The notes: generated by a model from the sequence alone, not told the origin. A stretch of 64,000 bases of DNA from an uncultured Candidatus Saccharibacteria bacterium (GCA_964620475.1 CAZUJN010000001.1:83497-147496), one strand, 5' to 3'; counted from the stretch's first letter, positions 44,431 through 62,064 are shown. Numbers and translations: made by a program.

Positions 44431-44988
44431 TTATTTGATTTGAAAATTAAATTGCCCAGCTATATCTTTTACAAATTCTTCAACTGATACTCCTTTTTTA
44501 TTGGCACTATGCTCAGCTTGCTCTTTATTGTTTACTGAAATTATTTTATCCATTATTGATTTTATCCCTATATCACCAATAACTTTATTATTTGTAACAT
44601 CATAAACTATAGATTGAACATTTAAAGGGGTGCCTGATAGGAAATTTTCTATAGTTGGTTCAAGACCTCGTCTGAGTATAGAGTGTATGCTTTTTAATGG
44701 TATATAATCTATTTCATATTTTGGTCCTATAAGTTTAGGGTTTCCATAACTGTTAACATCCATACTCCATCCGTCAGGTAGAGATATAGGTTGTTCCTCT
44801 TCAACTATAAAATCAAGATCGACATCTTTTGATACAGGTGTTCCATACATCTCTTGTATTATAGAGCGACAAACAAAACCACCTATTAGATATATATTTC
44901 CTTTAGAATTTGATTTTACTATTTCTATAGATTCTTTAAATTCAGGGAAGGTGTTTGCAATTTTTAAAAATGATTCGGTGGGGGACAT
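44431..44988 (-). CDS. minimal nucleotidyltransferase (Pol-beta superfamily) fold protein, probable
   Basis: 185 aa. LIGGFVCRS...SKDVDLDFIV resembles the G[GS]...DhD NTase motif. Confidence 0.35.
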   Translation of the reverse strand: MSPTESFLKIANTFPEFKESIEIVKSNSKGNIYLIGGFVCRSIIQEMYGTPVSKDVDLDFIVEEEQPISLPDGWSMDVNSYGNPKLIGPKYEIDYIPLKSIHSILRRGLEPTIENFLSGTPLNVQSIVYDVTNNKVIGDIGIKSIMDKIISVNNKEQAEHSANKKGVSVEEFVKDIAGQFNFQIK

Positions 44989-45603: not shown

Positions 45604-45672
45604 GGTTTTGTTATGTTAGGTTTAACTCAAATACAATACATAAAATATCTAGGTGTGTAAATAGGTGAGATT

Positions 45673-45754
45673 TGACCATTACATGGTCAGTACACCTTTG
45701 CTATTTTTTCAAATTCTGCGAATTTTCGAAAATAAGGTAAAGCTTTTCGAATCT
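45673..45754 (+). repeat. hairpin-containing repeat, copy A (family A/B/C)
   Basis: tgaccattacatggtcagtacacc...gaattctgcgaatt...aagcttttcgaatct. About 80% identical to copy B. Confidence 0.5.
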
Positions 45755-45810
45755 TTAAAAATTCAATAAGTTGAGAGCTCCACAAAGATTGTTTATGATA
45801 TAATCGTTAA

Positions 45811-46317
45811 ATGAATAAGATAATAATTATTGGTTGTCCCGCTTCAGGTAAGTCAACTCTAGGTAATAAACTTGCAAATATTCTAGATATACCTATTTTC
45901 CATTTGGATAAGATATTTTGGATACAACCTGGAGGAATCAAACAAGATATATTTTTTGCTAAACAAAAGGAGATAATTAAGGGTAACGAAAAATGGATTA
46001 TTGATGGTGATTTTGTAAGATCAAAATCGTTTGATTTTCGCGTTGAGAATTCTGATTTGATAGTTATATATGAATTATCAAAGATCTTAATTTATTGGAG
46101 ATTATTTAAAAGATTTGTGAAGGATTATGGAAAAACTCGTTCAGATATGCCTGAAAATAGAAAGGAGACATTTAAAACGATGTTCGGTGTTATCAAATAT
46201 ATATGGTCTTATAATAACGATTTTGCAGTGGAAAAGATCGATAAGGTTGGTATGAAGGATAAGATTGTTTTAATAAAATCAACTGAAGATGAAATAAATT
46301 TTTTAAGAAGATTTTAA
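45811..46317 (+). CDS. P-loop NTPase of the FlaR / topology-modulation, adenylate-kinase-like family
   Basis: 168 aa. MNKIIIIGCPASGKSTLGNKLA (Walker A) and IFHLDKIFW. Confidence 0.6.
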   Translation: MNKIIIIGCPASGKSTLGNKLANILDIPIFHLDKIFWIQPGGIKQDIFFAKQKEIIKGNEKWIIDGDFVRSKSFDFRVENSDLIVIYELSKILIYWRLFKRFVKDYGKTRSDMPENRKETFKTMFGVIKYIWSYNNDFAVEKIDKVGMKDKIVLIKSTEDEINFLRRF

Positions 46318-46338
46318 AATTTATTAATTAATATCATC

Positions 46339-46359
46339 TCATCACAGGTGATGATTTTT
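46339..46359 (+). terminator. rho-independent terminator
   Basis: tcatca-cagg-tgatga followed by ttttt. Confidence 0.5.
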
Positions 46360-46410
46360 AAAGTTTTATCTTTCGAAAGCTACGCTTTCTCTACACTATA
46401 ATATGTCATT

Positions 46411-46431
46411 GCGGAGGAGGTGAGATTCGAA
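46411..46431 (-). mobile_element. 21-nt duplicate of the tRNA-Ser 3' end (att-type direct repeat; left boundary of the integrated element)
   Basis: gcggaggaggtgagattcgaa is identical to 61977-61997 inside the tRNA-Ser gene. Confidence 0.6.
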
Positions 46432-46524
46432 GCTTACAGCTTCAGTACCACAAGGGCATTTCTCAGAAATAAAGGAGAACCTTTTCGAATCTCTCGAGGA
46501 AGTGCATAGTTGCACTTCCTCTCC
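46429..46524 (+). repeat. hairpin-containing repeat, copy C (tRNA-Ser-like remnant) of family A/B/C
   Basis: gaagcttacagcttcagtacca...ccttttcgaatctc-tcgaggaagtgcatagttgcacttcc-tctcc. Its 3' block matches copy B. Confidence 0.5.
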
Positions 46525-46695
46525 TTACAAAAACAAAAACACCCTTTCGAATGTTTTGTTTTTTGTGGAGGATCGTAGAGTCTATTCGAACTTATTATAT
46601 TAAAAACAGCGCATAACTATGTAAAGTTAATACGCTGTGGTTGAAAGTTTTAAGAGAGTTGAATTCTACGGTTACTTCACCGAGTGGGTATACCA

Positions 46696-47115
46696 CTATT
46701 TAAACAAGTCTTCACCGGCTAGAAACTTGGGGGTTGTCGGCTCGGAGGTGTAGAGCTTGACCGAGTTTTTGAAGATGCTTGTACCTAACTCCTCACCTTC
46801 AATGCCGATTATCGAGAATGCCAGGATACTTTGATCGAAACCAAAGTTGGCATAGGCGACATACCGTTTGCCGTTTAACTCGACAGTTAGCTTTTCTCCT
46901 AGTTTAAACTGGCCTGTAACTGTCATCTTTTTCGACCGAAAAAGATTATTTTCTGGGATCTTATGCCACAACGAACCCTCAACCCTTCCTGATATGTAGG
47001 CACCACTTACAGGACAACGGGTTATTCTATAGAAAGGGAAATCTTTCCAGAGGGTGGAAATTCCGTCAAATCCAACGAGTGAAAAGTGGGTGAGTGTAAA
47101 GGTCTTGGTTTTCAT
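46696..47115 (-). CDS. hypothetical protein encoded by a GC-rich (~45%) gene
   Basis: 139 aa, no motif recognised. Confidence 0.35.
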   Translation of the reverse strand: MKTKTFTLTHFSLVGFDGISTLWKDFPFYRITRCPVSGAYISGRVEGSLWHKIPENNLFRSKKMTVTGQFKLGEKLTVELNGKRYVAYANFGFDQSILAFSIIGIEGEELGTSIFKNSVKLYTSEPTTPKFLAGEDLFK

Positions 47116-47270
47116 AATGATTGGTGTTTGTTTTGGTTTAATGTGCTTTTCTGTCAGTCACTTGACCAACTGGGTAAAGTATATCATGATATTATATATT
47201 GATATTTTTATAAAACAAACTATATAAATAAATACTTATAAATAAAGGCTATATTAATTTTATATTAATT

Positions 47271-48107
47271 TTGTTCGTAAAAATTGACAAAATTAAATCA
47301 AAAATATACACTATCTACATGAATAACCAAGATCTAAAAACCAAAGTTGAGCGAGCAGGCTTAACTGATAAAGAATCGGCCACATATAGTGCACTTATTG
47401 AGCTGGGCGGAGCTTTTCCTTCCAAAATAGCCGAATATACAAAACTTAATCGAAGTACTGTATATAAGGTATTATTAGATCTTTCTGTAAAAGGGTTGGT
47501 TAGTGAGATAAAGAAGAAAAATAAGTTGTATTATCAGATTGAAAACCCTACTCGACTTGTAAGATATGCAAAAGATAAGGTAAAGATAGCAGAAGAACAG
47601 TTGGAGTACATGTCTAAACTGGTTCCTCAAATAGAAGGATTATATTCATTACTTTCAAATAAGCCAAAGATTTCATATTTTGAAAATATAGACGGCATCC
47701 TTTCTATATATGAGGATCAAATATCGGGAACCAAGAAATATGAAATGTTAGCATTTTCTAATACAACAGAAATAGAGAATGTTTTTCCGAAAGATTTTTT
47801 CACCAGATATAGAAGAGCAAAAGAGAAAATAGGTATTACAACAAGGGGTCTTATTCCTGATACTGAAAGGGATGAATCATTTGTAAATAGAATGTATGAC
47901 GGATATAAAAAAGAGGTTATTCCTCAGGTAAAATATGTTCCAGCAAAAGATTTTCCATTTAAAGGTGAGATTACTATTTATGGAGATAAAAAAGTTTCTA
48001 TTGTAAATCTAAATAAAGAATATTTTACTGGTCTAATTATTGAAGACCAAACAATTCATAACATGATGAGAATGATATTTGAATTGTCTTGGAAAGGGGT
48101 TAAGTAG
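47271..48107 (+). CDS. TrmB-family winged-helix transcriptional regulator (paralogue-like of 26287..27081)
   Basis: 278 aa. N-terminal HTH ESATYSALIELGGAFPSKIAEYTKLNRSTVYKVLLDL. Confidence 0.5.
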   Translation: MFVKIDKIKSKIYTIYMNNQDLKTKVERAGLTDKESATYSALIELGGAFPSKIAEYTKLNRSTVYKVLLDLSVKGLVSEIKKKNKLYYQIENPTRLVRYAKDKVKIAEEQLEYMSKLVPQIEGLYSLLSNKPKISYFENIDGILSIYEDQISGTKKYEMLAFSNTTEIENVFPKDFFTRYRRAKEKIGITTRGLIPDTERDESFVNRMYDGYKKEVIPQVKYVPAKDFPFKGEITIYGDKKVSIVNLNKEYFTGLIIEDQTIHNMMRMIFELSWKGVK

Positions 48108-48118
48108 GGAAATAGATT

Positions 48119-48235
48119 CGGTCCTTACAGGATCAGTACACCTTTTCTCGTTTTATCGAATTCTACGAATTCTCAAAACATAGAAAAGCTTTTCGAATCT
48201 CCCACGGAAGCAAAGCGGTTTGCTTCCTCTTCTCC
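48119..48235 (+). repeat. hairpin-containing repeat, copy B (family A/B/C), followed by a terminator
   Basis: cggtccttacaggatcagtacacc...gaattctacgaattc...aagcttttcgaatctc-ccacggaagcaaagcggtttgcttcc-tcttctcc. Confidence 0.5.
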
Positions 48236-48240
48236 TAATT

Positions 48241-48271
48241 AAAAACAATCACCTGGCGGTGATTGTTTTTC
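48241..48271 (+). terminator. rho-independent terminator
   Basis: caatcacc-tggc-ggtgattg followed by ttttt. Confidence 0.55.
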
Positions 48272-48446
48272 CTAGCGGGCCATGTGAGTTAAGTACCCAC
48301 TGGTACAAGCAGTATAAGGCTTTTTGAGGGGTTTTAGAAGCACCTCCCTGAGGTAAGTGAGTTGGGTATCTAAATGCCAACAAATGCCAATTTTAGAGAG
48401 AATCGGGGTTATTAGAAAAAAGGATAAAAAATGGTAAAATGAGGCC

Positions 48447-49628
48447 ATGATTGAGGATTTAAACAAACACCTAACAGATCAAGAATTCTTCACCTATGCG
48501 AAGTTTTTTGACATGGTTATAAACAAAAAGAACCTCGCTGATGAAGACCAAAGAGAAATTGGTGTATATCAGTTTTCTATTGGCGAAGATGAGTCATATA
48601 GACGATTTCGTAGACTTTTCAATTTCATCAAATACCAAGACTTGCCAGTCAAAATCTCTGAATCAAGATACAACAAACTGGAAGAAATGATTGGTTCGTA
48701 CGCAAAAGGAAAAGACGCGAAAGGTGCAGGAATGCCGACAAAAGAAGATCTAGATACTATTTGCGAAAAGATAAATAACGGTAAGCCTATAAAATTTTCA
48801 GAGACAGGAATGCTGTCATGGGCATGGTTTGAGGTGTATGACTCCACTCATTTTTTGCCACATCAATACGAGATTTCTAATGAAGTAAAATCGAATGTTA
48901 AAAAAGAATTTGATACATATCTAGAGAATCTCATAAACGGCAAGCTCTCTATCGCTAAGGATAACTACTACAAGTTCAACATCCTAAAAGAAGCGTTCAT
49001 CCAAATGATTGAGCGAAAGGGTGTTTTGAAATTATTTGGCAAAAACTTTGTCATCAAAGAAGAATTAAACAATGAAGGAAACCTAAAGAGTGACCCTAAC
49101 TTTTGCATTGTGCAAACGGTATATGCCTTACAACACCTAGGATACCTGACGGTGAACAATATCTGGAGAGATGACGAGTACAAAGAACAATACAGTAGTT
49201 CGAGCAATATCCGATATTTCATATCAATCAATGTGACAATTGAGGATAGTTTCATTTCTGAAATAAACGACAGATACAAGAAAGCGAATCCAAAAAACGT
49301 GATCGAAGGATTCGACAAACCGAAAGGAATCTTAAAATTCGCAGGTGAGGAAATAATCCTTTCACTCAAAGGTAAAGAAACGGATGCATCCCTCCTTATG
49401 AATACCTTGTACAAAAAAGAAGATACGGAATGGATCTATAACGACGAGATTTTTGAGGATTGGAAGTTTAACCAAGCTGACATCCTGAAAAGTCCTAAAA
49501 ACAAGATATATTTCGCTGCCAAAAAGATAAATGAAAAGGTAGCGATGAAGACCAAAATCGAGGATTTTATTGAATTTACCACTGAAAAAGCAAGGATAAA
49601 TCCTCGCTACAACAAAGTTGACGAATAA
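48447..49628 (+). CDS. hypothetical protein (island cargo)
   Basis: 393 aa, GC about 40%, no motif recognised. Confidence 0.4.
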   Translation: MIEDLNKHLTDQEFFTYAKFFDMVINKKNLADEDQREIGVYQFSIGEDESYRRFRRLFNFIKYQDLPVKISESRYNKLEEMIGSYAKGKDAKGAGMPTKEDLDTICEKINNGKPIKFSETGMLSWAWFEVYDSTHFLPHQYEISNEVKSNVKKEFDTYLENLINGKLSIAKDNYYKFNILKEAFIQMIERKGVLKLFGKNFVIKEELNNEGNLKSDPNFCIVQTVYALQHLGYLTVNNIWRDDEYKEQYSSSSNIRYFISINVTIEDSFISEINDRYKKANPKNVIEGFDKPKGILKFAGEEIILSLKGKETDASLLMNTLYKKEDTEWIYNDEIFEDWKFNQADILKSPKNKIYFAAKKINEKVAMKTKIEDFIEFTTEKARINPRYNKVDE

Positions 49629-49719
49629 TATATAAATCGCAATAAATTTTTATAAATAGCCATCATATATCCTGAAGTCATCCTTCGGGATTTATTAATT
49701 AGCTAAATATAAAAGTTAT

Positions 49720-51015
49720 ATGCAAAAGCAAAAACTCATATGGTCAGTTACAACCCGCAAAGTGAGTGATCTGACAAAAAACGGATACAATCCGAGAAAG
49801 ATAAGCGAGAGCGAAAAGAGAGACTTGGAAAAGTCTATTAAGGAATTCGGGACGGTCGTTCCTGTAATCCTTAATATTGGTTTGAGAGCCAATGTCATTA
49901 TCGGCGGTGAGCAAAGAGTAAAGATATATGCTGATCTCGGTATGGAAGAGATCGAGTGTATGGTACCCTCTCGGGAACTGACACCTAAAGAAGAAAAAGA
50001 GCTTAACCTCCGTTTGAACAAAAACACAGGGTCATGGGATGAAAACCTTCTCAAGGAATTCGATATGGACATGCTCCTTGGTGTAGGTTTTGGCGATGAA
50101 GAATTGCAAAGCCTGTTTGATGATGTAGATATGGTCGAGGATGACTTTGATATTGAAAAAGCTGTCAAAGAAACCATAACTGCTAAAGTGAAGACTGGAG
50201 AAATCTGGGAACTCGGAAAGCATAGGTTGCTTGTTGGGGATTCTACTGATGTCACATCCGTACAAAAACTTATGGATGGAAAACTTGCAGACATCGTGTA
50301 CTGCGATCCGCCATACAACATTGGACTCGACTATTCAAAAGGTGTCGGCAACAAAGAAAAATATCAAGGGTCATATTCCGCAAAGGATGATTCGAAAAAG
50401 GATACTGACTATCTCGATTTCATAGATAAAAGTATTGATGTGGCAAAGACCGTAGCCAAGAAGGATTCCCACTTCTTCTACTGGTGCGACTCTTCGTATA
50501 TTTGGATCACACAGAATCTATACCAAAAGCACGGTATAGATAGTAAACGTGTCTGCATGTGGATCAAGAATAATCAGAATCCCACTCACAAGATTGCGTT
50601 CAATAAAGTATATGAACCATGCGTATACGGAACTATCGGCAAGCCATATCTCAATTCAGCAATGAACAATGTTAATGAGATTCTCAATCAGGAAGTGACC
50701 ACCGGCAATCAGGTACATGATGAGATTCTAGACATGATAGATATTTGGATTGAGAAAAGAGACAACGCTCAAACATATCAACATCCAACTCAAAAGCCTG
50801 TAACGCTCAATGAAAAACCACTCAAAAGATGCAGTGCTCCGCTTCATATTGTGTATAGCGGATTTGCGGGTAGCGGTAGTGATTTGATTGCTTGCGAAGA
50901 ATTAAATCGTGTTTGGTATGGAGTCGAAAAGGATTTGATTTTCGCAACCATCGTTATAGACCGATGGGAAAAGTTTACTGGCCTTAAAGCAAAGAAAATA
51001 TATGAAAATAACTAA
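49720..51015 (+). CDS. ParB/Srx-like nuclease domain fused to an N6-adenine/N4-cytosine DNA methyltransferase (DPPY class)
   Basis: 431 aa. N-terminal NPRKISE...IIGGEQRV (ParB-like). Methyltransferase motif IV VYCDPPYNIG and motif I GFAGSGSDLIACEELNR. Confidence 0.85.
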   Translation: MQKQKLIWSVTTRKVSDLTKNGYNPRKISESEKRDLEKSIKEFGTVVPVILNIGLRANVIIGGEQRVKIYADLGMEEIECMVPSRELTPKEEKELNLRLNKNTGSWDENLLKEFDMDMLLGVGFGDEELQSLFDDVDMVEDDFDIEKAVKETITAKVKTGEIWELGKHRLLVGDSTDVTSVQKLMDGKLADIVYCDPPYNIGLDYSKGVGNKEKYQGSYSAKDDSKKDTDYLDFIDKSIDVAKTVAKKDSHFFYWCDSSYIWITQNLYQKHGIDSKRVCMWIKNNQNPTHKIAFNKVYEPCVYGTIGKPYLNSAMNNVNEILNQEVTTGNQVHDEILDMIDIWIEKRDNAQTYQHPTQKPVTLNEKPLKRCSAPLHIVYSGFAGSGSDLIACEELNRVWYGVEKDLIFATIVIDRWEKFTGLKAKKIYENN

Positions 51016-51751
51016 AGGAGATATTTTCAAGATCGGCAATCATATTATCGGTTGTGGTGATTCTACCGACAGAGAATTTGTAGCTAAAGTAATCGGGAAG
51101 AACAAGATACGAGCCATCATTTCTGACCCACCTTATGGAGTTGCATATGTTGAAAACAAGAAAGGCTTTGCGAAACTTGGTGTTAAGGACGAGAAAATAA
51201 TTGTCGGCGATCATTTGCAGAGCGAATCTGAATATGAAGATTTCACCAGAAAGTATCTTGGTGCCGTTATTCCATATCTCGATGACTACAATGCATGCTA
51301 CATATTTAACGCCGATCCGATGTTTCCATCTCTCCGTAAAGGCATGAAAGATGCGGGTTTCTATTACAGCCAGATGATTATTTGGATTAAGAATCAACCT
51401 GTCATGAGTAGAAAAGACTACCTTTCGCAATATGAACTAATTGCATATGGATGGTTTGGCAAGCACAAAATGGAAAGATCTAAATCAAAGAATGTTATTT
51501 ATCACCCACGACCAAACAGATCAAGACTTCACCCTACACAAAAGCCGATAGGGCTACTTAGAAAGATAATTCCAGACGCAACATGCGTCGGTGACTTTAT
51601 CTATGATCCGTTTCTCGGAAGTGGATCAACTGCTATTGCATCGGAACATTTAGGTCGAAAATGTATCGGTATAGAAATAGATGAAGTGTATGTTTCCGTC
51701 GTTCTACAAAGACTTGAAAAGCTAACTGGTCAAAAACCAATAAAGATATAA
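51002..51751 (+). CDS. N6-adenine/N4-cytosine DNA methyltransferase (DPPY class)
   Basis: 249 aa. ISDPPYGVAY and DPFLGSGSTAIASEHLGRKCIGIEID. Confidence 0.85.
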   Translation: MKITKGDIFKIGNHIIGCGDSTDREFVAKVIGKNKIRAIISDPPYGVAYVENKKGFAKLGVKDEKIIVGDHLQSESEYEDFTRKYLGAVIPYLDDYNACYIFNADPMFPSLRKGMKDAGFYYSQMIIWIKNQPVMSRKDYLSQYELIAYGWFGKHKMERSKSKNVIYHPRPNRSRLHPTQKPIGLLRKIIPDATCVGDFIYDPFLGSGSTAIASEHLGRKCIGIEIDEVYVSVVLQRLEKLTGQKPIKI

Positions 51752-51755
51752 CAGT

Positions 51756-52130
51756 ATGAACGAGGAAGACTTCATAAAAGATCCATACAAAAAGCAAACA
51801 TACGATACGTATGCTCTTTGGAAGTCTCTGCCCTCATTTCTCAAGGGACAGCCGAGAGTTGCTCTCGAAAAGTTTGGTATTAATGAAGAAATTGTATTTG
51901 AGTTGCTATCCATAAAAAATCAAACTGAGTTCTCAAAAATATACAAAACAGATGTCGGCACATTGACCGACTGGAACAAGAGACTTGAGAAAGATGGATT
52001 GACTAAAGACATCAACAGCTGGGCAAGAAAGCTTACTCCTAACGTCATATTTGCCCTGTATAAAAATATCACAAAGCATGGTCGAGCTCATGAGGTGAGA
52101 GCATGGTATGAATTAATTGAAAACAACTAA
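51756..52130 (+). CDS. hypothetical small protein with a possible HTH
   Basis: 124 aa. TEFSKIYKTDVGTLTDWNKRL is HTH-like. Translationally coupled to the methyltransferase genes. Confidence 0.35.
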   Translation: MNEEDFIKDPYKKQTYDTYALWKSLPSFLKGQPRVALEKFGINEEIVFELLSIKNQTEFSKIYKTDVGTLTDWNKRLEKDGLTKDINSWARKLTPNVIFALYKNITKHGRAHEVRAWYELIENN

Positions 52131-52326
52131 TATGAAAAACATTGATCTAAAAGAAATAAATATCATTCTCTCTGACACATTGCAAAAAGTTGTGAATAGA
52201 GAGATCTCACATAAACAAGCGAACATGGTCGCTAAGCTTGCCTCTACACTTTCTAAAAACATTGTGAATACCGAACTCAAAGAGCGAGTTGAATTTTTGG
52301 AGCAAGCACTTAAAGGAAAGAAATAA
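52117..52326 (+). CDS. hypothetical small helical protein
   Basis: 69 aa. Overlaps its neighbours by 14 nt upstream and lies 3 nt from the next gene. Confidence 0.3.
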   Translation: MKTTNMKNIDLKEINIILSDTLQKVVNREISHKQANMVAKLASTLSKNIVNTELKERVEFLEQALKGKK

Positions 52327-52328
52327 TT

Positions 52329-53813
52329 ATGAAAAATCTAGCAAACCTATTAAGAAAAGCAGACATCACTCCAAGAGAAAGAATGATAACCTTGGTGCAA
52401 AATAGTGTTTATAAAGAAAAGGACGGCAAGAGTATTCTTTCCGAATCGGAGATATATTCTTTGACGGAGGGGTGGAAGCCGAAAACTTCTCAGGAAGTAA
52501 GGGAGTATAACAAGTACTTGGAACTGTCTAAACTAGAAGCTTCGATGAGATTAGATGCTCAAATGTTTGCGTGTAGATCCGAGAATCTGCTACTACGAAG
52601 TCATATACTGATTGAGGGAATAAAAAGTGATATAGGAAAAACTCATGATGCAATTTTAGATAAATATGTATCAAAAGAAGATGCCCTGAACTTTGTCATA
52701 CAAAATACTTATCTCGACTATTCAACGCTTGTTCACATACTCACTTTCAACAACCTACCGAAAGATATTCAGGATGATTTGATTATGTTAGATGAGTATG
52801 TAGCACATGATAAAAAGTATTTGGAAGATGAGGTCTTTCTTTATGAATTGTTCAAAGATTCAAGTACTCTAAATACAAAAGATAAAAATATCTTGATAGA
52901 CCGTATCTATTCGTGTATGTATCACGATGGTTTTAGAAAGATTAAAAATGGAACAGAAAAAGATGGTTTCTTGCCACTCCATTTCTTTGCTGAGTTACCA
53001 ATGGATGCTGTGCTGAAAAAATGGGCAGAATACAGCCAGACAGATATCGAGGGGAAAGATAATGGTTATATACTAGATAAATTTGAGGAGTACGCAAAAA
53101 GTAGAGGTAAAACCATGGAGATATTTGTAAAGGAAACACTATCGAAGTGGATAGATGAAGGTTTGTTTGTGTCGGAATATACCCCAGTATTTTTTAGTAA
53201 TAAACACAATACATGGAATGGTGATACTAAATTTATACACAAAGAGATTTTTACCAAATGGCACGAAGAATTACAGAAGACCAAAACATCGATAGACAAA
53301 ATGGGTGCTAATGGAGATTTGGTTGTGGAGCAATTTGATAAGGAAATTTTTGGAACCACAGAGAAGGTTCAGATAGTTACTGGGGAAAGTTTGTATAGAT
53401 GCAAATCTGATATTGACTTTGTGAATGAATACAAGGAGCAGGTGACTGTACTCCTACCTATCGCAGGGACGTGTTTGTTTATGAAGAAATATAATAAGCC
53501 GTTAGATAATCTTGAAACACTAAAATGTTTTTACGAATTATCTAAAACATTTTCGGATGTATTTGAAATTGATATGTCAGATAAATATGATGATTTTGTG
53601 AGTTCGTTTGAACAGGAGATCAAACTCATCAATCATTCAATATCCATTGCATTAGATAATGTGAGTGGTTTTATATATACAAAAATGAACAAAAAATACC
53701 CAATAGAGATCATCGAGAATAATTTTACTTTTGATATTGATACAGAATCAGAAAATAAAGCCGATGGTATTATTGAAAGTTATAAAGGAGCATTTCAGAA
53801 AATTGGGTTTTAA
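52329..53813 (+). CDS. hypothetical protein (494 aa), island cargo
   Basis: No Walker, nuclease or HTH motif recognised. Last gene of the plus-strand methyltransferase operon. Confidence 0.4.
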   Translation: MKNLANLLRKADITPRERMITLVQNSVYKEKDGKSILSESEIYSLTEGWKPKTSQEVREYNKYLELSKLEASMRLDAQMFACRSENLLLRSHILIEGIKSDIGKTHDAILDKYVSKEDALNFVIQNTYLDYSTLVHILTFNNLPKDIQDDLIMLDEYVAHDKKYLEDEVFLYELFKDSSTLNTKDKNILIDRIYSCMYHDGFRKIKNGTEKDGFLPLHFFAELPMDAVLKKWAEYSQTDIEGKDNGYILDKFEEYAKSRGKTMEIFVKETLSKWIDEGLFVSEYTPVFFSNKHNTWNGDTKFIHKEIFTKWHEELQKTKTSIDKMGANGDLVVEQFDKEIFGTTEKVQIVTGESLYRCKSDIDFVNEYKEQVTVLLPIAGTCLFMKKYNKPLDNLETLKCFYELSKTFSDVFEIDMSDKYDDFVSSFEQEIKLINHSISIALDNVSGFIYTKMNKKYPIEIIENNFTFDIDTESENKADGIIESYKGAFQKIGF

Positions 53814-53815
53814 GA

Positions 53816-54568
53816 TTATTTACCCTTCCAGTGCACCGCTCGATTTTCGATAAACATCATTATTTTGTTGAGAGCAAAACCAATCACACCAGTCATGAGG
53901 ATGGCGGCATACATATCTGCTGTTTGATAGACTAATTGTGCATCAATAATGCGTTTTCCAAGCCCAGCATTGGTCCCAATAAACATTTCAGTCACGATGA
54001 CAATTATAAGTGAGAGTGAAATTGCCACACGAAAACCTGAAAAGATTTGTGGTAATGCTTCTGGAAAAATCACTTTGCGAAAAAGTTCGAATCCTTTTAC
54101 TTTCATTGTTTTAGCGACACGCACTCGTAATTCCTTGCCGAGATGTACCCCATACATGGAGTTTATGAGAATGACCAATCCTGCACCCCAAGCAGTGACA
54201 GCAAATTTAGCCTCATCGCCGATTCCAAAGACAAGGAGAAACAGTGGGAAAAGCGCAGTCGTTGGAATACCTCGAAAAAACTCGACAGTAAATTCAAGAG
54301 CGTTATAGACTTTGCTTGAGTAACCCATCAGAAGACCAAGTGGGACTCCGATAATAGTTGCAAAAATAAAACCAACAAGAACACGATACAGGGTGTGTCC
54401 GATGTCGCTTAACATTGATCCATTCAGTAGTGAATCAATGAGGTGATTGGAAACATCATATGGAGATGCCAAGAATAAAGGACTGACAAGTTTGAAATAT
54501 GAAATGATCCACCAGAGGCAGAGTAAAATTGTCGGTATGAGTATGTAATATAATTTCTTATTTTTCAT
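53816..54568 (-). CDS. ABC transporter permease (NitT/TauT, SsuC/TauC/ThiX-like)
   Basis: Likely start MKNKKLYYILIP. Six TM helices and an EAA-like loop. Confidence 0.75.
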   Translation of the reverse strand: MKNKKLYYILIPTILLCLWWIISYFKLVSPLFLASPYDVSNHLIDSLLNGSMLSDIGHTLYRVLVGFIFATIIGVPLGLLMGYSSKVYNALEFTVEFFRGIPTTALFPLFLLVFGIGDEAKFAVTAWGAGLVILINSMYGVHLGKELRVRVAKTMKVKGFELFRKVIFPEALPQIFSGFRVAISLSLIIVIVTEMFIGTNAGLGKRIIDAQLVYQTADMYAAILMTGVIGFALNKIMMFIENRAVHWKGK

Positions 54569-55310
54569 ATTCGAAGGTATTAAGAATTGCGTTTCGAAGT
54601 TCAGTAAATTCAGGACTTGAAAGCATATCAAGTGTTCGAGGACGAGGGAGTTTTACTTCAAAAATCTTTTTAATTTTTGCTGGTCGTGGAGACAGAACAA
54701 TCACTCTATCAGCGAGAAATATAGCTTCGTCAATATCATGACTTACAAACAAAGTTGTTATTTTTTTCTCTTGCCAGATATCAAGAAGCTCCAACTCCAT
54801 TTTTCTAGTAGTTGAATAATCAAGAGCAGAAAATGGCTCATCCATGATCAGAATGTCAGGATCATAAGCAATTGAACGACATATAGAAACAAGTTGACGT
54901 TGTCCCCCAGAGAGTTCATAGACAAATTTATCCTTTGAATTAAGCAAACCCACTTTATTTAAAAGATGCTCGGCAATTTTGTATTGTTTTTCTTTATCTA
55001 CTTTTGCTATTTCAAGCGGAAATATAATATTTTCTAAAACGGTTCTCCAAGGAAAAAGACTTTCGTTGTAATTCTGAAAAACAAAACCTACTTGTGCATC
55101 CTTTGGGTTTTTACCGCTAACCATGACTTCACCTGATTCAGGAGTTTCAATACCAGCGACGATATTAAGTAGCGTTGTTTTACCTGATCCATTCGGACCA
55201 AAAACAGTTACAAATTCTCCTTTATTAACTTCAAGATTAATACCATCAATAACCCTGGTGTCGCCAGAATCTTTTTTAAAGGTTTTAGTTATTCCAACAA
55301 GTGAAATCAT
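54558..55310 (-). CDS. ABC transporter ATP-binding protein
   Basis: 250 aa. Walker A GPNGSGKTTLL, signature LSGGQRQ, Walker B ILIMDEPFSALD. Confidence 0.85.
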   Translation of the reverse strand: MISLVGITKTFKKDSGDTRVIDGINLEVNKGEFVTVFGPNGSGKTTLLNIVAGIETPESGEVMVSGKNPKDAQVGFVFQNYNESLFPWRTVLENIIFPLEIAKVDKEKQYKIAEHLLNKVGLLNSKDKFVYELSGGQRQLVSICRSIAYDPDILIMDEPFSALDYSTTRKMELELLDIWQEKKITTLFVSHDIDEAIFLADRVIVLSPRPAKIKKIFEVKLPRPRTLDMLSSPEFTELRNAILNTFEYEK

Positions 55311-55316
55311 TACCGT

Positions 55317-56273
55317 TTATTTGTAATATGCGTTAGTTAAATCTGGTTTTGATTTGAACTCTCCAGAAGCCACTAAAATATCAAGCAACTTATTGGTTAA
55401 AGTTTTATCAATCTGTTGTGAATTTCTAAAATATGTCATTCCGAGAACGTCGACAACTTTCTGGTCTAGCTTAAAGATTGTTTTTGTCATACCCCTAACA
55501 TCTTTGTCGTTGGTACGTAGATAATCAAAGGCCTTATCAAAAGCATTAACTACTTTTTTTGCTTCACGTGGATACTTATTTACAAACTGAGTGCTTACAA
55601 GTGCTACCCCCAATGGGCTGTGATCTAACTGTTCAGAATAAACAGAACCATAGACCTTCCTTATTCCACCGCTTGTAAGTGCGATAGATATTGTTGGTTC
55701 ATATGTGAATAAAGCATCAATCGATCCTGCGGTAAGTGCTGTGAGATGTTGTGGTGGTGGTAATTGCACAAACTGAATAGTAGAAGAATCAATGCCTTTA
55801 TCTTTTAGAAAAAGTTTAAACATATTTGAAGCACTTGTACCTGGGAATACTCCGATTTTTTTACCTTTCAAATCCTCAAGGGTCCTAATAGGAGAGCTTT
55901 CCTTTACCAAAAGAGAATCAAATGGAACGTCACTTGTAATGTCAGTTAAAGCGATAATTTTCATTTTTCCAGGATCAACCATTTCTGCGTTTAAATATGG
56001 AAGTATAGAAATTTCGGGAGTAACATCTATATCACCTCGTGCAAGTGCATCAACAATTTGATTTGAGGTTTGAAGTAGTGTGGTTTGAACAGTAATGCCC
56101 TGATCCTCAAAAAACTTTTTTTGCTGAGCAATCTCTAAAGGAAGTTGGCTTGCTGTAATCGGTAAATACCCGATTTTTACAACATAATCAGACGGTTTAT
56201 TAGATCTTAAAAAAAATACGCTGAGTATAACTAAAATTATAAGTGTTCCGATGATTAAAAATGGTTTTTTCAT
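55317..56273 (-). CDS. ABC substrate-binding protein (NMT1/THI5-like, SsuA/ThiY-like)
   Basis: Likely start MKKPFLIIGTLIIL (signal anchor), then a periplasmic-binding-protein type 2 fold. Confidence 0.65.
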   Translation of the reverse strand: MKKPFLIIGTLIILVILSVFFLRSNKPSDYVVKIGYLPITASQLPLEIAQQKKFFEDQGITVQTTLLQTSNQIVDALARGDIDVTPEISILPYLNAEMVDPGKMKIIALTDITSDVPFDSLLVKESSPIRTLEDLKGKKIGVFPGTSASNMFKLFLKDKGIDSSTIQFVQLPPPQHLTALTAGSIDALFTYEPTISIALTSGGIRKVYGSVYSEQLDHSPLGVALVSTQFVNKYPREAKKVVNAFDKAFDYLRTNDKDVRGMTKTIFKLDQKVVDVLGMTYFRNSQQIDKTLTNKLLDILVASGEFKSKPDLTNAYYK

Positions 56274-56422
56274 AGTAATAAAAATTAAGTTATTAATAAA
56301 ATTTCCTGTTTTAAAAGATGGTCTCATTGTACCATAAAAAATGACTTTTCCATAATTAAAATACGCCCAAAATAAATTTAAGCGTCATAACCCCTATTCA
56401 AATTACTAACTATTAAAAATAG

Positions 56423-57121
56423 TTACAAAACATTGTTCTCCTTACCCAAAACCACCCGATTAAGATACATGAAAGGAATGTTTATTAGTCCGACTAACCA
56501 TTTGACAGCAGTTTGTCCAATTATAAGGGGCATTATTGGTAAGGCTCCCAAGAAAGCTATTGGAATAAATATTAGACTATCCAGAAGTAGTGCTGGTATC
56601 GAACTGAAGACATTTCTTGCCCATAAATGTTTGCCTTTAGTAAATTTTTTGAACCAAGCATACACATATGCATCAAAATTCTCAGTTATAAGGAAGGCAA
56701 TCCAGCTAGCAATGGTAATCCTTGGTACTAGATTGAAAATTTGTTCCCATGATCCCTGCATTGTCCAAAATGGTGCCGCAGGCAATTTTACACCAAGCCA
56801 AAAGAAAAACACCATTGCGATTTGAGATACAAAAGCAATGAGAATCATTTTTGATACTTCCTTTCTACCAAATTTTTCATTTACAATATCTGTAAAAAGA
56901 TACGTGATAGAGAAAACAAGTACTCCACTCGGACCAAAGAATGTGCTGAATCCCAGATCGAAAGCAGAGATCTTGGCGGCTAAGACTTGGGCTACAAGAA
57001 CAAACGTGACGTATAATCCAATAAGTAAATCCGATCGGTTATATTTTCGAGCATACAAACTCCCGAGAAGTGTAAAACTAGTGATACCTACAATCCAGAT
57101 AATTAATAAGTATAAGCTCAT
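56423..57121 (-). CDS. yhhQ: YhhQ/COG1738 (VUT family) transporter, a queuosine-precursor (preQ0/preQ1) transporter family
   Basis: 232 aa, about six TM helices. YLFTDIVNEKFGRKEVSKMI matches the conserved YhhQ TDxxNExYG motif. Confidence 0.65.
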   Translation of the reverse strand: MSLYLLIIWIVGITSFTLLGSLYARKYNRSDLLIGLYVTFVLVAQVLAAKISAFDLGFSTFFGPSGVLVFSITYLFTDIVNEKFGRKEVSKMILIAFVSQIAMVFFFWLGVKLPAAPFWTMQGSWEQIFNLVPRITIASWIAFLITENFDAYVYAWFKKFTKGKHLWARNVFSSIPALLLDSLIFIPIAFLGALPIMPLIIGQTAVKWLVGLINIPFMYLNRVVLGKENNVL

Positions 57122-57128
57122 ATATTAT

Positions 57129-57848
57129 TTATAATAACTTAATTCTATAATTTATCCAAATAAAACCCCGCTCGTTTCTCTCTTGTTTTGTTTCTATCTT
57201 GTATCCGTACTCGGTCATCATTTTTTCTAGAACTTCAAAATCATATCGGGGTTGAGAAGTTCCTGCACTCTGTAAATTTGCATGGGGTAAGGTAATAATA
57301 CCGTCATTATGTAAAAAATCTTTTGCATCATTAAGAAATCTTTTATGTACAGTGAAATTGTTATCATAGAGCGCCCGATCAATTAAGTCGTTTCCACCAT
57401 CAAAATTGACAAAGGGTAAATTTGCGATAATCAGATGGTATTTTTTATCAGATGGAAATTTTGAAAAAAGATCAGAATAGAAGGTTGATATTTTATTTTG
57501 TAAACCGTTTAATGAAACATTGTGTTCAGTGCATTTAATTGCTTCCATGTTAATGTCGGCAGAGTCAACGTGCTTTGCGCCTGCAAGAGAAGCAACTATT
57601 GACTGTACACCTGTACCACAACCTATATCTGCAACTTCTAAATCACTTAAATTTCCAAATGCTTCAAAAACAGATTTTGAACTGGGGGTATAATCGGGTG
57701 GAAAGACGCTGGGAAAAACATCGATAGGAACAATCTTGTCTCCAATATTCAAGCTTATTCTGTAAATTCCATCCTTACTTTTATTTTTCAAAAAAGAAAG
57801 AAATTCTTGAGTATGTTTTGGATTGATTTTTTCTATGTGTGTAATCAT
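57129..57848 (-). CDS. SAM-dependent methyltransferase, small-domain (RsmC/RlmG/PrmC-like) type
   Basis: 239 aa. VADIGCGTGVQSIVASLAG (motif I), HLIIANLPFV (NPPY-like motif IV), preceded by VFPPDYTPSS. Confidence 0.55.
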   Translation of the reverse strand: MITHIEKINPKHTQEFLSFLKNKSKDGIYRISLNIGDKIVPIDVFPSVFPPDYTPSSKSVFEAFGNLSDLEVADIGCGTGVQSIVASLAGAKHVDSADINMEAIKCTEHNVSLNGLQNKISTFYSDLFSKFPSDKKYHLIIANLPFVNFDGGNDLIDRALYDNNFTVHKRFLNDAKDFLHNDGIITLPHANLQSAGTSQPRYDFEVLEKMMTEYGYKIETKQERNERGFIWINYRIKLL

Positions 57849-57853
57849 ATTTT

Positions 57854-58174
57854 TTAATCCTCAATCCAAACCTGTGCTGGACGATGTGCATCAGAATGTT
57901 TTATGTCAATAAATATTTTTAGATATTTAGGTTTAATAGATTCTTTTACTTGCAGATAAATTTGATGGGCCAACTCTTCAGCAGTAATTTTATTTTTAGC
58001 AATTTCATTTACAGCTCGCTCAGCATCGACATATTCAAGAACTTTCTTCTTGGGATAGTACTCAACGATAACATCACCAGAAAACTCTTTATCCGTAACC
58101 GAACAAATTGCCTTAAACGGTAAAAATATCTTTGTGCCACTGATCTTGAAATTTAATGAGATTGTTTTAATCAT
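57854..58174 (-). CDS. T-fold protein, QueF-like
   Basis: 106 aa. LPFKAICSVTDKEFSGDVIVEYYPKKKVLE aligns with QueF [30 protein letters not shown] (Cys conserved). The QueF E(S/L)K(S/A)hK(L/Y)(F/Y/W) motif is not preserved. C-terminal LKIFIDIKHSDAHRPAQVWIE is a T-fold-type strand. Confidence 0.4.
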   Translation of the reverse strand: MIKTISLNFKISGTKIFLPFKAICSVTDKEFSGDVIVEYYPKKKVLEYVDAERAVNEIAKNKITAEELAHQIYLQVKESIKPKYLKIFIDIKHSDAHRPAQVWIED

Positions 58175-58175
58175 T

Positions 58176-59081
58176 TTATTGTAAGTTATGTTTGATAATA
58201 AAAATTCTAAAATTTGCAGGGATACTCCTTACTTTTGTCATATTGAGTTCATGTTTTTGTGCAAATTCGGACATTTTTTTGTATATAAAATCTCTATCCT
58301 CAGAACTTAAACCTGCACTGAACACATTATACGTTCCTTCTTTTATTGAATAAAGAAGGTCATTGAGTTGATATTTTCTTTTCCATGATAGTGCTTTATT
58401 TGAAATAATCTTGAACAAAGTAAATTTTTTATCTGCACAGATATATTCCACAGCTTTTGTAGCATCGCCTGCGGGATACTTTCTTTGAACAAAAGGCTTT
58501 TTGAGATTAACTCTTAAAGAAAAATAATATTCAAAAAGAAGCTCTAGGTCCTTATCTATAATTGGGCTATTAAAAATTTGTTCAATCCTATCTTCTATCT
58601 GACTATTTTCATCGCCAGTAATAATATAACCACCAGGCTTAGATAAAGATTTTATCTTATTCAAAGCTTTTTCTGGAGAATTAAAACAATGAAGAATTGC
58701 TTTGAAGTGCACAATACTATACTGTCCTTTAAATTTAAGAACGTCTCCCAAAATTATTCGGGTTTTATCTTTAACATATTTAGACACAGCCTCATACATT
58801 TTTTCACTATAATCTATTCCATAAATCTCAGCCTTTGAATTTAAATTCAAAAGGGGTATTAAAAACAAGCCAGACCCAAAGCCAACATCTAGAATGTTGT
58901 CACCGTCTCGTGTTAAACCAATGGCTTGAGATGCATATTCTTTCTGTATAGATTTTGGGAATAATCGCAAAATCTCGTACTGTTGTTGGTTTATTTTTTT
59001 GTAGGTATCCCGCGTAGACATAAAAGTACTGTACCATAAAATTATCCTTTTGTGTAGCCATTTAAATATTTTTTCTATCAA
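58176..59081 (-). CDS. class I SAM-dependent methyltransferase
   Basis: 301 aa. ILDVGFGSGLF (motif I) and GGYIITGDE. Confidence 0.55.
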   Translation of the reverse strand: MIEKIFKWLHKRIILWYSTFMSTRDTYKKINQQQYEILRLFPKSIQKEYASQAIGLTRDGDNILDVGFGSGLFLIPLLNLNSKAEIYGIDYSEKMYEAVSKYVKDKTRIILGDVLKFKGQYSIVHFKAILHCFNSPEKALNKIKSLSKPGGYIITGDENSQIEDRIEQIFNSPIIDKDLELLFEYYFSLRVNLKKPFVQRKYPAGDATKAVEYICADKKFTLFKIISNKALSWKRKYQLNDLLYSIKEGTYNVFSAGLSSEDRDFIYKKMSEFAQKHELNMTKVRSIPANFRIFIIKHNLQ

Positions 59082-59147
59082 AAGTTACCAACTCCTGCCG
59101 TGTGAGACGCCTAGACTTCCTCAGGGGTTTGCGTCATCAATGTAGGT

Positions 59148-60473
59148 ATGAAAACAACAGCACCAACAGGCTATGAAATGGCCCAAACAACACAATTAGT
59201 AGCAAGTTTGAAATACTGCCTTTATGCACGTAAATCGACAGAAAGCGAGGAACGGCAAGTCCTCTCTATAGACAGTCAGATTAAGGAGATGTTACAACTG
59301 GCAGAACGAGAGAATCTGGATATCGTGACAATGAAGCGAGAAAGTCACTCGGCAAAAGAAACTGGACAAAGACCAGTATTCAACGAGATAATCGATGAAT
59401 TAAGAGCTGACAAATACAACGCAATCCTCACATGGGCACCCGACCGTATCTCAAGAAACGCAGGAGACTTAGGAAAAATCGTTGACTTGATGGATGCGGG
59501 TAAACTACACCAAATCAGGACATTCGGACAGACATTTTCAAACAATCCGAATGAAAAATTTCTTCTAATGATTCTTGGATCACAAGCAAAGCTTGAGAAC
59601 GACAACCGAGGGATTAATGTAAAACGAGGACTGCGAACAAGAGTAGAGATGGGATTGTGGCCAGGAGTTGCACCTCTTGGATATTTGAATCAAAGGGATA
59701 TCGACAAGAAGTGTCAGCTCATAGTCGATCAATTGAGAGCACCACTGGTAAAAAAAATATTTGAAAAAGTGGCATATGAAAAATTAAGCGGAAGAAAGAT
59801 ATATAATTGGCTTCGATTTGAAGCCAATTTCTATACCAGAGGAAACAAACCTCTGACACTCGCAGGAGTATATAGGATCATAGAAAGCCACTTCTACTAT
59901 GGGATGTTTGAATATCCAAAAGACAGCGGTAACTGGTATACAGGAAAACATGAACCATTGATTACCAAAGAATTATTTGATCAGGCTCAAGCCCAAATGA
60001 AGCGTGACAACATACAACGAGAGAATAAAGAATTTGCATTCACTAAATTATTTACATGCGGATACTGTAGTAGTGGAATATCAGCAGAAGAAAAATGGAA
60101 GCAACTCAAGGATGGAACGCATGCAAAATATGTATACTACTCATGTGCGAGATCGAGAGACAGGAACTGTAAGAACAAATATATACGAGAGGAGGATTTA
60201 ATTATCGAGATGTTAAAAATACTGGACAAGGTAAATATAAACGAGCTAGGCATGAGGCAAAAGCTTGAGGACGAGATAGCAAGATTCAACATATTCCAAA
60301 GGTCGGTGCTCGGAAGTACTGACAAGGTTGGCAACAGAAAAGATACTGATATACGAAACTATGCGAAGTATATTCTCAAAGAGGGAGCGGTTACTGAAAA
60401 GCGAGAATTGCTAGCGAACTTGAGATCGAGAATAGCATATAAAGACAAAGAGCTGACATTAATCGAAGAATAG
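59148..60473 (+). CDS. large serine recombinase (resolvase N-domain, recombinase domain and zinc ribbon)
   Basis: 441 aa. YARKSTESEERQVLSIDSQ (Ser nucleophile), GLWPGVAPLGY, CGYCSSG...C. Confidence 0.8.
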   Translation: MKTTAPTGYEMAQTTQLVASLKYCLYARKSTESEERQVLSIDSQIKEMLQLAERENLDIVTMKRESHSAKETGQRPVFNEIIDELRADKYNAILTWAPDRISRNAGDLGKIVDLMDAGKLHQIRTFGQTFSNNPNEKFLLMILGSQAKLENDNRGINVKRGLRTRVEMGLWPGVAPLGYLNQRDIDKKCQLIVDQLRAPLVKKIFEKVAYEKLSGRKIYNWLRFEANFYTRGNKPLTLAGVYRIIESHFYYGMFEYPKDSGNWYTGKHEPLITKELFDQAQAQMKRDNIQRENKEFAFTKLFTCGYCSSGISAEEKWKQLKDGTHAKYVYYSCARSRDRNCKNKYIREEDLIIEMLKILDKVNINELGMRQKLEDEIARFNIFQRSVLGSTDKVGNRKDTDIRNYAKYILKEGAVTEKRELLANLRSRIAYKDKELTLIEE

Positions 60474-60482
60474 ATTTTAATA

Positions 60483-61871: not shown

Positions 61872-61882
61872 TACTGCATTTT

Positions 61883-61914
61883 ACCAAAAAACAGCAGATT
61901 AATCTGCTGTTTTA
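61883..61914 (-). terminator. terminator hairpin downstream of tRNA-Ser
   Basis: aacagcagatt/aatctgctgtt palindrome with T6 on the minus strand. Confidence 0.45.
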
Positions 61915-61974
61915 GGGCAATCGGGTCGCACTACTTGCTCAGGCAAGTGGGTTGACGCCGATAAAAAATTGTGT

Positions 61975-62064
61975 TGGCGGAGGAGGTGAGATTCGAACTC
62001 ACGGGACCCGTAAAGGCCCTCCTGTTTTCAAGACAGGTGCAATCGACCTCTCTGCCACTCCTCC
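61975..62064 (-). tRNA. tRNA-Ser (anticodon TGA) with encoded CCA
   Basis: 90 nt. Acceptor ggaggag/ctcctcc, anticodon arm cctgt-cTTGAaa-acagg, long variable arm, T arm gtgag-ttcgaat-ctcac. Confidence 0.85.

Follow-up and report, generated by a model that had tools for sequence, protein, structure and literature searches.

An apparently undescribed family of tRNA-adjacent, hairpin-rich elements in Patescibacteria

A stretch of 64,000 nucleotides (nt) from the genome of an uncultured Candidatus Saccharibacteria bacterium (GCA_964620475.1, CAZUJN010000001.1:83497-147496), referred to here as the window, carries three copies, A, C and B, of a repeat that we call E. E is ~130-150 nt long (~135 nt) and represents an apparently undescribed family of tRNA-adjacent, hairpin-rich elements in Patescibacteria. 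Both of its arms copy the 3' end of the tRNA gene that stands beside it, and its structure is real and maintained. The reading that we prefer, and hold tentatively, is that E works as DNA, as a miniature insertion module that carries little cargo and is aimed at tRNA 3' ends.

Distribution, anatomy and fold of E

A pattern drawn from copies A, B and C (TTACA-N4-CAGTAC-N25-55-TTTCGAATCT) was scanned in one genome per prokaryotic species. This single scan gave 45 loci, 41 of which are in Patescibacteria, namely Paceibacteria, Parcubacteria, Nomurabacteria and genomes labelled Saccharibacteria. The remaining four, not matched by a covariance model, are chance matches. The model, R1, was built from the copies of E in relatives, whose loci are cited below by L numbers, and 60 matches to E were obtained. 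The architecture of the three copies thus returns in ~45 independent contigs, which is more than chance would give. At nearly all single-copy loci, a convergent tRNA gene ends 15-50 nt away from E. The tRNA is mostly Ser, with any anticodon, and can also be Arg, Val, Thr, Ala or Gln. The commonest state (~40 loci) is one E with only a hairpin separating it from the tRNA and with no island. No conserved protein family was found around E, the neighbors being housekeeping genes, and two scans of viral contigs gave no copy. When the window was searched with Rfam 15, only three true tRNAs reached the gathering score and nothing relevant appeared up to an E-value of 10. Literature searches returned no description of such an element.

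Two observations concern tRNA genes at these loci. ARAGORN called a tRNA-Ser with anticodon ACT (loop TTACTAA) at nine loci, often beside a normal tRNA-Ser(GCT) (L014, L017, L020, L022, L025, L029, L043, L049 and L050); A at position 34 is unusual in a Ser tRNA. It also called a "tRNA-Stop" with anticodon TTA in L054 (15747-15831), where L053, L055 and L058 have tRNA-Leu(gag). This could be a suppressor-type tRNA or a miscall.

Read in the orientation of the window, E starts with a 5' arm that repeats, in reverse complement, the final 21-24 nt of the tRNA gene beside it (e.g., GCGGAGGAGGTGAGATTCGAA). The core follows and consists, in order, of P2 (5 bp with a TTACA loop), CAGTAC, a long hairpin, P3, that starts with ACCTTTTCC and ends with GGAAAAG, and CTTT. 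The 3' arm contains a sense copy of the T-loop and of the 3' strand of the T-stem (TTCGAATCTCAC), then P4, and then a copy of the 3' strand of the acceptor stem plus GC. P4 is a 9-bp hairpin, often with a GCAG loop, which splits this arm, the one nearer to the tRNA. The two arms pair as P1a and P1b and so form an outer stem that encloses the core. The copied tRNA end comprises the T-loop TTCGAA, the 3' strands of the T-stem and acceptor stem, G73 and C74. The ends of E read GCGG...CCGC, with TTCGAA as inner boxes, and no short target duplication was found at these GCGG/CCGC ends. One subclass has a small additional hairpin in the 5' arm (GCG-AGTA-CGC, with covarying variants). On the 3' side of E there is an A-tract, a hairpin and a T-tract, followed by the real tRNA gene on the opposite strand. 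Since the reverse complement of the tRNA follows E by 15-50 nt, E lies just downstream of the tRNA gene.

Both arms, including the T-loop copy, change with the neighboring tRNA. Beside tRNA-Arg, for example, the T-loop copy reads TTCGATTCC, the 3' arm CTTTTCGATTCCTAC and the 5' arm GTGATCCCGGTAGG. In intact 5' arms, the exact identity to the tRNA always extends from GC (G73, C74) to TTCGAA, a block of 21 nt that was seen in L002, L016, L021, L023, L024, L053 and copy C of the window. Imperfections usually fall in the 3' arm and not in the 5' arm.

Some loci depart from this layout. Beside tRNA-Ser(tga) in L059 (5745-5830), an element without a core has its 5' arm (GGAGGATGTGAG) joined straight to CTTTTCGAATCTCACAC, P4 and TCTCC, which suggests that the two-hairpin core can be lost or gained as a block. 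Beside tRNA-Val(tac) in L055 (13900-14100), the arms and P4 are retained and the core is swapped for an unrelated sequence, so more than one type of core may exist. In L010 (7545-7800), L012, L032 (640-729) and L040, a conserved noncoding stretch (tGCGGTGTTTGTTGGACAAAGTTCGAA ... GGGAAAGGATTCG ...) follows E in the usual place of the tRNA. It is 87% identical between L032 and L010, has no match in Rfam or ARAGORN, and may be another RNA gene.

Covariation was tested on a MAFFT alignment of 22 copies over five named helices. Paired cells made up 86%, compared to 34-53% when the partners were slid by 1-3 columns. Cells changed on both sides numbered 158, compared to 52 ± 5 in shuffles, and none of 500 shuffles was as high. 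Compensatory changes were found in 28 of the 37 pairs, and the covariation score was 0.478 as against 0.14 in shuffled alignments. Single E sequences also fold 4-8 standard deviations better than their shuffles. Measured against these slid and shuffled controls, the covariation and the fold scores show that the structure of E is real and maintained, and the conserved helices and loop bases show that the fold is under selection.

Copies of E in the window and at related loci

All three copies, A, C and B, are on the + strand, and the window has no other match to R1. With filters off, the rest of the window reached at most 11.3 bits (E-value 0.86). Copy A (45657-45785; 76.6 bits, E-value 6e-17) is truncated, its intact part being ~45664-45756. 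It retains a partial 5' arm (GGTGAGATTTGA), P2 (gacca-TTACA-tggtc), CAGTAC, a long P3 and CTTTTCGAATCT. Its 3' arm and P4 are degenerate, as judged from sequence and alignment, and its fold is weak (z-score -2.3). Copy C (46411-46528; 86.8 bits, E-value 2e-19) is complete, with a short P3. Its P2 is gaagc-TTACA-gcttc, its 3' arm is TTCGAATCTCTC followed by P4 (ggaagtgca-tagt-tgcacttcc) and TCTCC, and it folds at -44.3 kcal/mol (z-score -4.2). The 5' arm of C (46411-46431) matches 61977-61997, the reverse complement of the 3' end of tRNA-Ser, at 21 of 21 nt, for which the chance expectation is 0. Copy B (48102-48236; 106 bits, E-value 3e-24) has the top score. Its 5' arm is degenerate, with AGATTCG alone retained, while P2, P3, the 3' arm and P4 (ggaagcaaa-gcgg-tttgcttcc) are intact, and its fold has a z-score of -4.9. 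The three copies are mutually only 66% alike in the alignment. Each has one zero-mismatch occurrence of the 12-mer CTTTTCGAATCT, and there are no others in the window. The stems of P2 differ among the copies and each is self-complementary: tgacca/tggtca in A, gaagc/gcttc in C and ggtcc/ggatc in B.

A preliminary description of this DNA had reported the three repeats, and sequence reading, alignment and R1 agree on their existence, strand and approximate location. The TTACA-loop hairpin with AGTAC(A)CC on its 3' side was seen in all three copies as described, and the terminal GC hairpin plus TCTCC was found in B and C only, also as described. The internal gaattctRcgaatt palindrome is found in A and B and is missing from C. 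The copies had been linked through a ttcgaatct core, and the alignment extends well past it to span the whole core of E. The exact 21-nt tRNA-Ser fragment said to abut C is real. It is not a neighbor of C, however, as it is C's own 5' arm, which pairs with the 3' arm. Likewise, the reverse complement of C resembles a decayed tRNA-Ser in its two arms and not in the remainder.

The tRNA gene in question is tRNA-Ser(tga) at 61975-62064 (- strand; ARAGORN and Rfam tRNA), the last 21 nt of which are copied by the arms of E. A-tract, hairpin and T-tract sequences were read on the 3' side of C (46528-46566), where they are terminator-like in both directions, and on the 3' side of B (48240-48271; aaaaacaatcacc-tggc-ggtgattgttttt); a terminator scan made no call at either one. 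After C, the place that a tRNA gene has in intact loci is occupied by a degenerate reverse-complement tRNA 3' end (46565-46591, + strand; gtggaggatcgtagagtctattcgaac), found by alignment.

Comparison with a syntenic relative (L009) shows how much has accumulated here. L009 has EamA, ~500 nt, a single E, a hairpin, tRNA-Ser and RuvX, and the window has ~18 kb more at tRNA-Ser. Of the three window copies, B is closest to the E of L009 (89.7% identity over 136 nt by BLAST). This identity suggests that B is the resident copy; C and A lie beside small gene blocks. From B towards EamA the order is a TrmB-family regulator, a 139-amino-acid (aa) open reading frame (ORF), the degenerate tRNA 3' fragment, C, a kinase-like gene and A. 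The block between C and B (46696-48107, both strands; ORF calls and Pfam) holds the 139-aa ORF (46696-47115, - strand) and the TrmB-family regulator (47319-48107, + strand; Pfam TrmB 8e-13), whose stop codon extends into the degenerate 5' arm of B. Between A and C, a 168-aa P-loop (AAA-type) kinase-like protein is encoded at 45811-46317 (+ strand; weak AAA_18/AAA_28 Pfam matches).

E shows insertion and loss polymorphism among relatives. Tandem arrays of two or three E units at one tRNA were found in L012, L015, L020, L045 and L053. In L053, one extra unit of E plus hairpin stands exactly at ...ctcgt|GCGG, the same point being taken by the tRNA in L052 and by an island in L054. E is 98.7% identical over 155 nt between L005 and L032, and their flanks are unrelated. 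In one metagenome-assembled genome, three contigs break within an identical 92-nt core and have differing arms, indicating at least two copies. When relatives were chosen by means of the housekeeping gene RuvX, irrespective of whether they carry E, the element adjoined tRNA-Ser(tga) in four of four close relatives and was degenerate in one. Among the distant relatives, L059 has the core-less remnant, L058 has a decayed 3' end, and L060 has no E within 6 kb of the tRNA and a serine-recombinase gene nearby. At tRNA-Arg(tct) and tRNA-Val(tac), E is present in some of the sampled genomes and absent or replaced in others. Genes lie between copies of E in the window and in L007, where there is a small ORF (cupin-like by reading of the sequence).

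The largest addition at the window's tRNA-Ser is a 13.7-kb island (48279-61974) between the hairpin of B and the tRNA, which is missing from L009. One of its genes, at 59148-60473 (+ strand), encodes a large serine recombinase in which Pfam recognizes Resolvase, Recombinase and zinc-ribbon domains. The others, also assigned with Pfam, include Shedu (60483-61871, - strand), two DNA methylases, an ABC transporter, a queuosine-precursor transporter and methyltransferases. The distal end (48275-48300, + strand; GCGG|GCCATGTGAGTTAAGTACCCAC) is common to L003 and resembles the tRNA half-site GCGG|AGGAGGTGAGATTCGAACTCAC. The tRNA-proximal end (61925-61974, - strand) is a 50-nt stretch 3' of tRNA-Ser that is conserved in seven insertions at six other recombinase-bearing loci. 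The junctions have only GCGG in common, and this point also serves another serine-recombinase family, found in L054. The ends bear an inverted motif, GTGGGT...ACCCAC. Thousands of homologs of the recombinase with >80% identity occur across Patescibacteria, and in every context fetched the gene was 1-2 kb from a tRNA-Ser of any anticodon (recombinase or island-end loci: L003, L046, L048-L051, L054 and L060). The cargo of these islands is mostly defense, such as Shedu and methylases here and type I restriction-modification elsewhere. They look like a very successful family of islands that target tRNA-Ser. The 13.7-kb island is an ordinary member, a serine-recombinase island at the end of tRNA-Ser, and is separate from E. 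Serine recombinases leave no long direct repeat, so the island does not explain the 21-nt repeat of E. The recombinase was also considered as the mobilizer of E and rejected, as the 5' arm of E is an exact tRNA half-site and its other end is not the mirror of it.

Several further features of the window were noted. A 7-nt duplication (TAGATTS) around the 4.4-kb block from EamA to B is too weak to support a claim. A 185-aa ORF (44431-44988, - strand) without a Pfam match lies within the block from EamA to A, which is missing from L009, and its GGF...DVDLDF resembles a nucleotidyltransferase motif. In the island, 56423-58174 encodes the queuosine-precursor transporter, of the Vut_1/YhhQ family, and a small protein with a QueF/GTP-cyclohydrolase-I fold; methyltransferases flank the two, and the group may form a 7-deazaguanine-related module. 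Tandem repeats of 21 nt (GATATTGAAGAKATTCAAGAA-like) at 23439-23593, with a related stretch at 50119-50168, probably encode an acidic 7-residue protein repeat.

Possible modes of action

If E is an insertion module working at the DNA level, it would be selected for its own propagation and would insert itself where a tRNA gene ends. Since the exact tRNA identity stops at the T-loop TTCGAA, the crossover would probably occur in or beside it. E would thereby come to lie between the tRNA end and a direct repeat of that end, and it might carry genes, or genes might be inserted, between copies. The hairpin would be needed for propagation, possibly in the form of a folded single strand resembling the double-stranded tRNA end, much as integron attC sites and the CTX phage attP imitate their own targets. 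In the window, B would have been resident, and the serine-recombinase island would have been inserted later at GCGG, between the hairpin of B and tRNA-Ser. We infer that E moves by site-specific recombination and that its hairpin matters as folded DNA. Action and spread at the DNA level are suggested by the exact repeat boundaries, by equal counts of G·T and A·C and equal folding of the two strands (both given below), and by the insulating hairpins on both sides. They are suggested as well by the tandem arrays, the L053 unit, the identical cores elsewhere, the patchiness and decay, and the genes between copies.

A more specific version, which we consider quite unlikely, makes the tRNA genes of Patescibacteria integron-like capture platforms with E as a folded-hairpin recombination site of the attC or CTX attP type. 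The stem of E would then rebuild a double-stranded tRNA 3' end for a putative recombinase, and small, mostly empty cassettes would be inserted and excised at tRNA genes without destroying the tRNA.

Several results are serious weaknesses of E as an insertion module. No recombinase was found between A and C, between C and B, or adjoining E in the 45 loci, and no excised or circular form of E was seen. The GCGG junction of the serine-recombinase islands fails to account for the 21-nt repeat of E. At tRNA-Arg(tct), there was no clean pair of filled and empty sites, as L054 and L055 hold a different sequence of ~170 nt. Cargo joins E at one point of the 5' arm in B and at another in the second E of L007, which speaks against one precise crossover, or else those copies have decayed. 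The fitting of both arms to a new tRNA species is hard to explain, gene conversion from the tRNA next door and template switching inside the hairpin being guesses. Finally, the helices and the unpaired TTACA and CAGTAC are kept across deep lineages, which is also expected of a functional RNA. As a separate observation, the ORFs scanned at 42.8-53.8 and 56.4-61.9 kb of the window and the sampled neighbors included no tyrosine recombinase.

The preliminary description had offered three interpretations, each partly borne out here, and a small structured RNA family was one of them. The conserved multi-hairpin structure stands, and an RNA product, though somewhat unlikely, is the main rival of the insertion module and a serious one. 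On the tRNA strand, the RNA would be a tRNA-like minihelix, with an acceptor-like stem bearing the exact 3' end of the neighboring tRNA, P4 at the place of the D, anticodon and variable arms, and a T-stem whose loop is enlarged by P3 and P2. Transcription reading through from the tRNA gene would produce this RNA, and tRNA enzymes would process it. An RNA from the opposite strand would have a 5' arm antisense to the tRNA 3' end and might titrate or guide a factor that recognizes the acceptor and T-arm of that tRNA. Strong covariation in four helices, the bases conserved unpaired in the P2 loop and the junction, and stable folds (z-scores -4 to -8) are consistent with an RNA, and the A-/T-tract hairpins on both sides give E the look of a short transcription unit. 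There is also a promoter-like TCGAAA-18-TATAAT with its predicted start at the first base of C, and the topology of the tRNA strand is like that of a tRNA, with a continuous 3' strand and, at the 5' junction, a hairpin. In folding, the two strands are about equal. The tRNA strand is slightly ahead (total -1610 vs. -1548 kcal/mol), with more G·U pairs in minimum-free-energy folds (58 vs. 35 on the other strand). An RNA, however, should leave a wobble signal, and G·T/T·G (27) did not exceed A·C/C·A (29) in the seed alignment, nor did it in the structure-based alignment of 59 distinct copies (67 vs. 68, ~2000 cells). G·T equals A·C, so there is no RNA strand signal in E; P2 and P3b are nearly all Watson-Crick. 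Neither the wobble counts nor the folding energies gave a clear signal for assigning E to one strand, and such an assignment was dropped. The window has about as many promoter-like sites as expected by chance (15 vs. 13.9), and there is no consistent promoter for E. At many loci a T-run hairpin stops 2-8 nt before E, on either strand, leaving no room for a promoter of its own; a count of hairpins around 53 copies was too noisy to be used. E is also missing or decayed at orthologous tRNAs of related genomes, Rfam has no match, and GNRA or UUCG tetraloops were not evident in the loops seen.

The second interpretation was accretion of decayed att (attachment)/tRNA remnants. In its passive form, successive tRNA-Ser islands would have left att scars, and the shared 100 nt would be a functionless attP arm. 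The accreted state of the locus relative to L009 and the exact 21-nt tRNA-end repeat at C bear out part of this, as do the degenerate tRNA 3' fragment after C, the decayed arms of A and B, and the fact that islands do target tRNA-Ser here. Mere scars are nevertheless improbable. E is a widespread family, ~40 loci have a single E and hairpin with no island, and its core is not obviously derived from tRNA. Compensatory helix changes across deep lineages are not expected of protein-binding attP arms. The tRNA-nearer arm is an inverted copy of the tRNA end that covaries with the tRNA, and integration scars yield no such arm. The islands here, moreover, use serine recombinases. Another possibility to which we give little weight is that E works as host DNA in the service of the tRNA gene, either as a two-way transcriptional insulator or as an integrase decoy or landing pad. 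As a decoy, E would present a second tRNA 3' half-site so that integrases spare the tRNA. Its constant position and orientation relative to the tRNA, the A/T-tract hairpins on both sides, the synteny at tRNA-Ser(tga) in all four independently sampled close relatives, and the exact copy of the serine-recombinase half-site that it holds (GCGG|AGGAGGTGAG...) agree with such a role. Islands insert at the tRNA end and not at the copy in E, however, E is patchy or decayed in more distant relatives, and the conserved core (TTACA loop, CAGTAC) would have no role.

The third interpretation was a miniature inverted-repeat transposable element (MITE). The multiple copies, tandem arrays, insertion polymorphism and inverted-repeat arms of E agree with it; there is no target-site duplication in the usual sense, and the arms copy the neighboring tRNA.

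Other candidates were rejected. ARAGORN found no transfer-messenger RNA (tmRNA) or permuted tmRNA. By inspection, the junction strands misfit the hammerhead core, and no small ribozyme family matched. P2 as a mimic of an anticodon arm, with a loop like that of tRNA-Val UAC or tRNA-Tyr GUA depending on the strand, was dismissed, as the loop has only 5 nt.

Significance and relation to known systems

Patescibacteria make up a large share of bacterial diversity, and to our knowledge little has been described of their noncoding DNA and mobile elements. E is a widespread, strongly structured element tied to tRNA genes, with no prior description according to Rfam and the literature searches. If it is a recombination module, it would explain the pile-up of foreign genes, defense islands among them, at tRNA-Ser in these tiny genomes and would be a new kind of hairpin attachment site. 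If it is an RNA, it would be a new class of tRNA-mimicking RNA. Either way, E is a useful marker for delimiting islands, and it is a cause of contig breaks in metagenome assemblies of Patescibacteria.

The att repeats of islands at tRNA 3' ends, including the arrays of Prochlorococcus tycheposons, resemble E in being exact repeats from the T-loop to the gene end, and they too show accretion of foreign genes at one tRNA and decayed older copies. E differs in its unit of ~190 bp, which usually has no genes and no integrase, and in adding the tRNA end in inverted form, which base-pairs with the repeat, plus a conserved two-hairpin core with compensatory changes. The large serine recombinase attB/attP sites, with their GCGG junctions, inverted end motif and tRNA-like half-site, fit the 13.7-kb island only. 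E has a 21-nt repeat, and its end nearest to the tRNA is unlike a mirror of the 5' arm.

Integron attC sites and the folded attP of CTX phage are, like E, imperfect inverted repeats of ~60-140 nt that fold into a hairpin, with a stem that imitates a double-stranded recombination site, a structure conserved above sequence and a location between small gene cassettes in arrays. The stem of E, in contrast, imitates the end of a tRNA gene, and its center is conserved in sequence whereas that of attC is variable. E also lacks the GTTRRRY core (the R''/R' boxes RYYYAAC ... GTTRRRY are absent) and any link to IntI/Xer. Unlike in integron arrays, cassettes are rare and cargo genes point in either direction.

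MITEs such as Correia, RUP, ERIC and Nezha share with E a small size, lack of coding capacity, inverted-repeat ends, a long hairpin, multiple copies, assembly breaks and no preference for wobble pairs. The ends of E, however, are copies of the neighboring tRNA and vary by locus; we know of no described MITE with such arms. E also has a strict position after the tRNA (15-50 nt), no short target duplication, no parent transposon, and deep conservation with covariation. The tRNA-like RNAs (the tRNA-like domain of tmRNA, the bacterial Y RNA YrlA and viral tRNA-like structures) have, as E does, an acceptor-like stem stacked on a T-stem-like helix and a 3' strand identical to that of a real tRNA. 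E differs from them in having no T-loop hairpin, no Rfam match and no preferred strand, and in a paired stem that also covers G73 and C74. E thus has something in common with each of tRNA att repeats, attC sites, MITEs and tRNA-like RNAs, and fails a defining test of each. As no Rfam family and no known kind compared here matches E, we file it, tentatively, as a small tRNA-targeted insertion element of its own variety.

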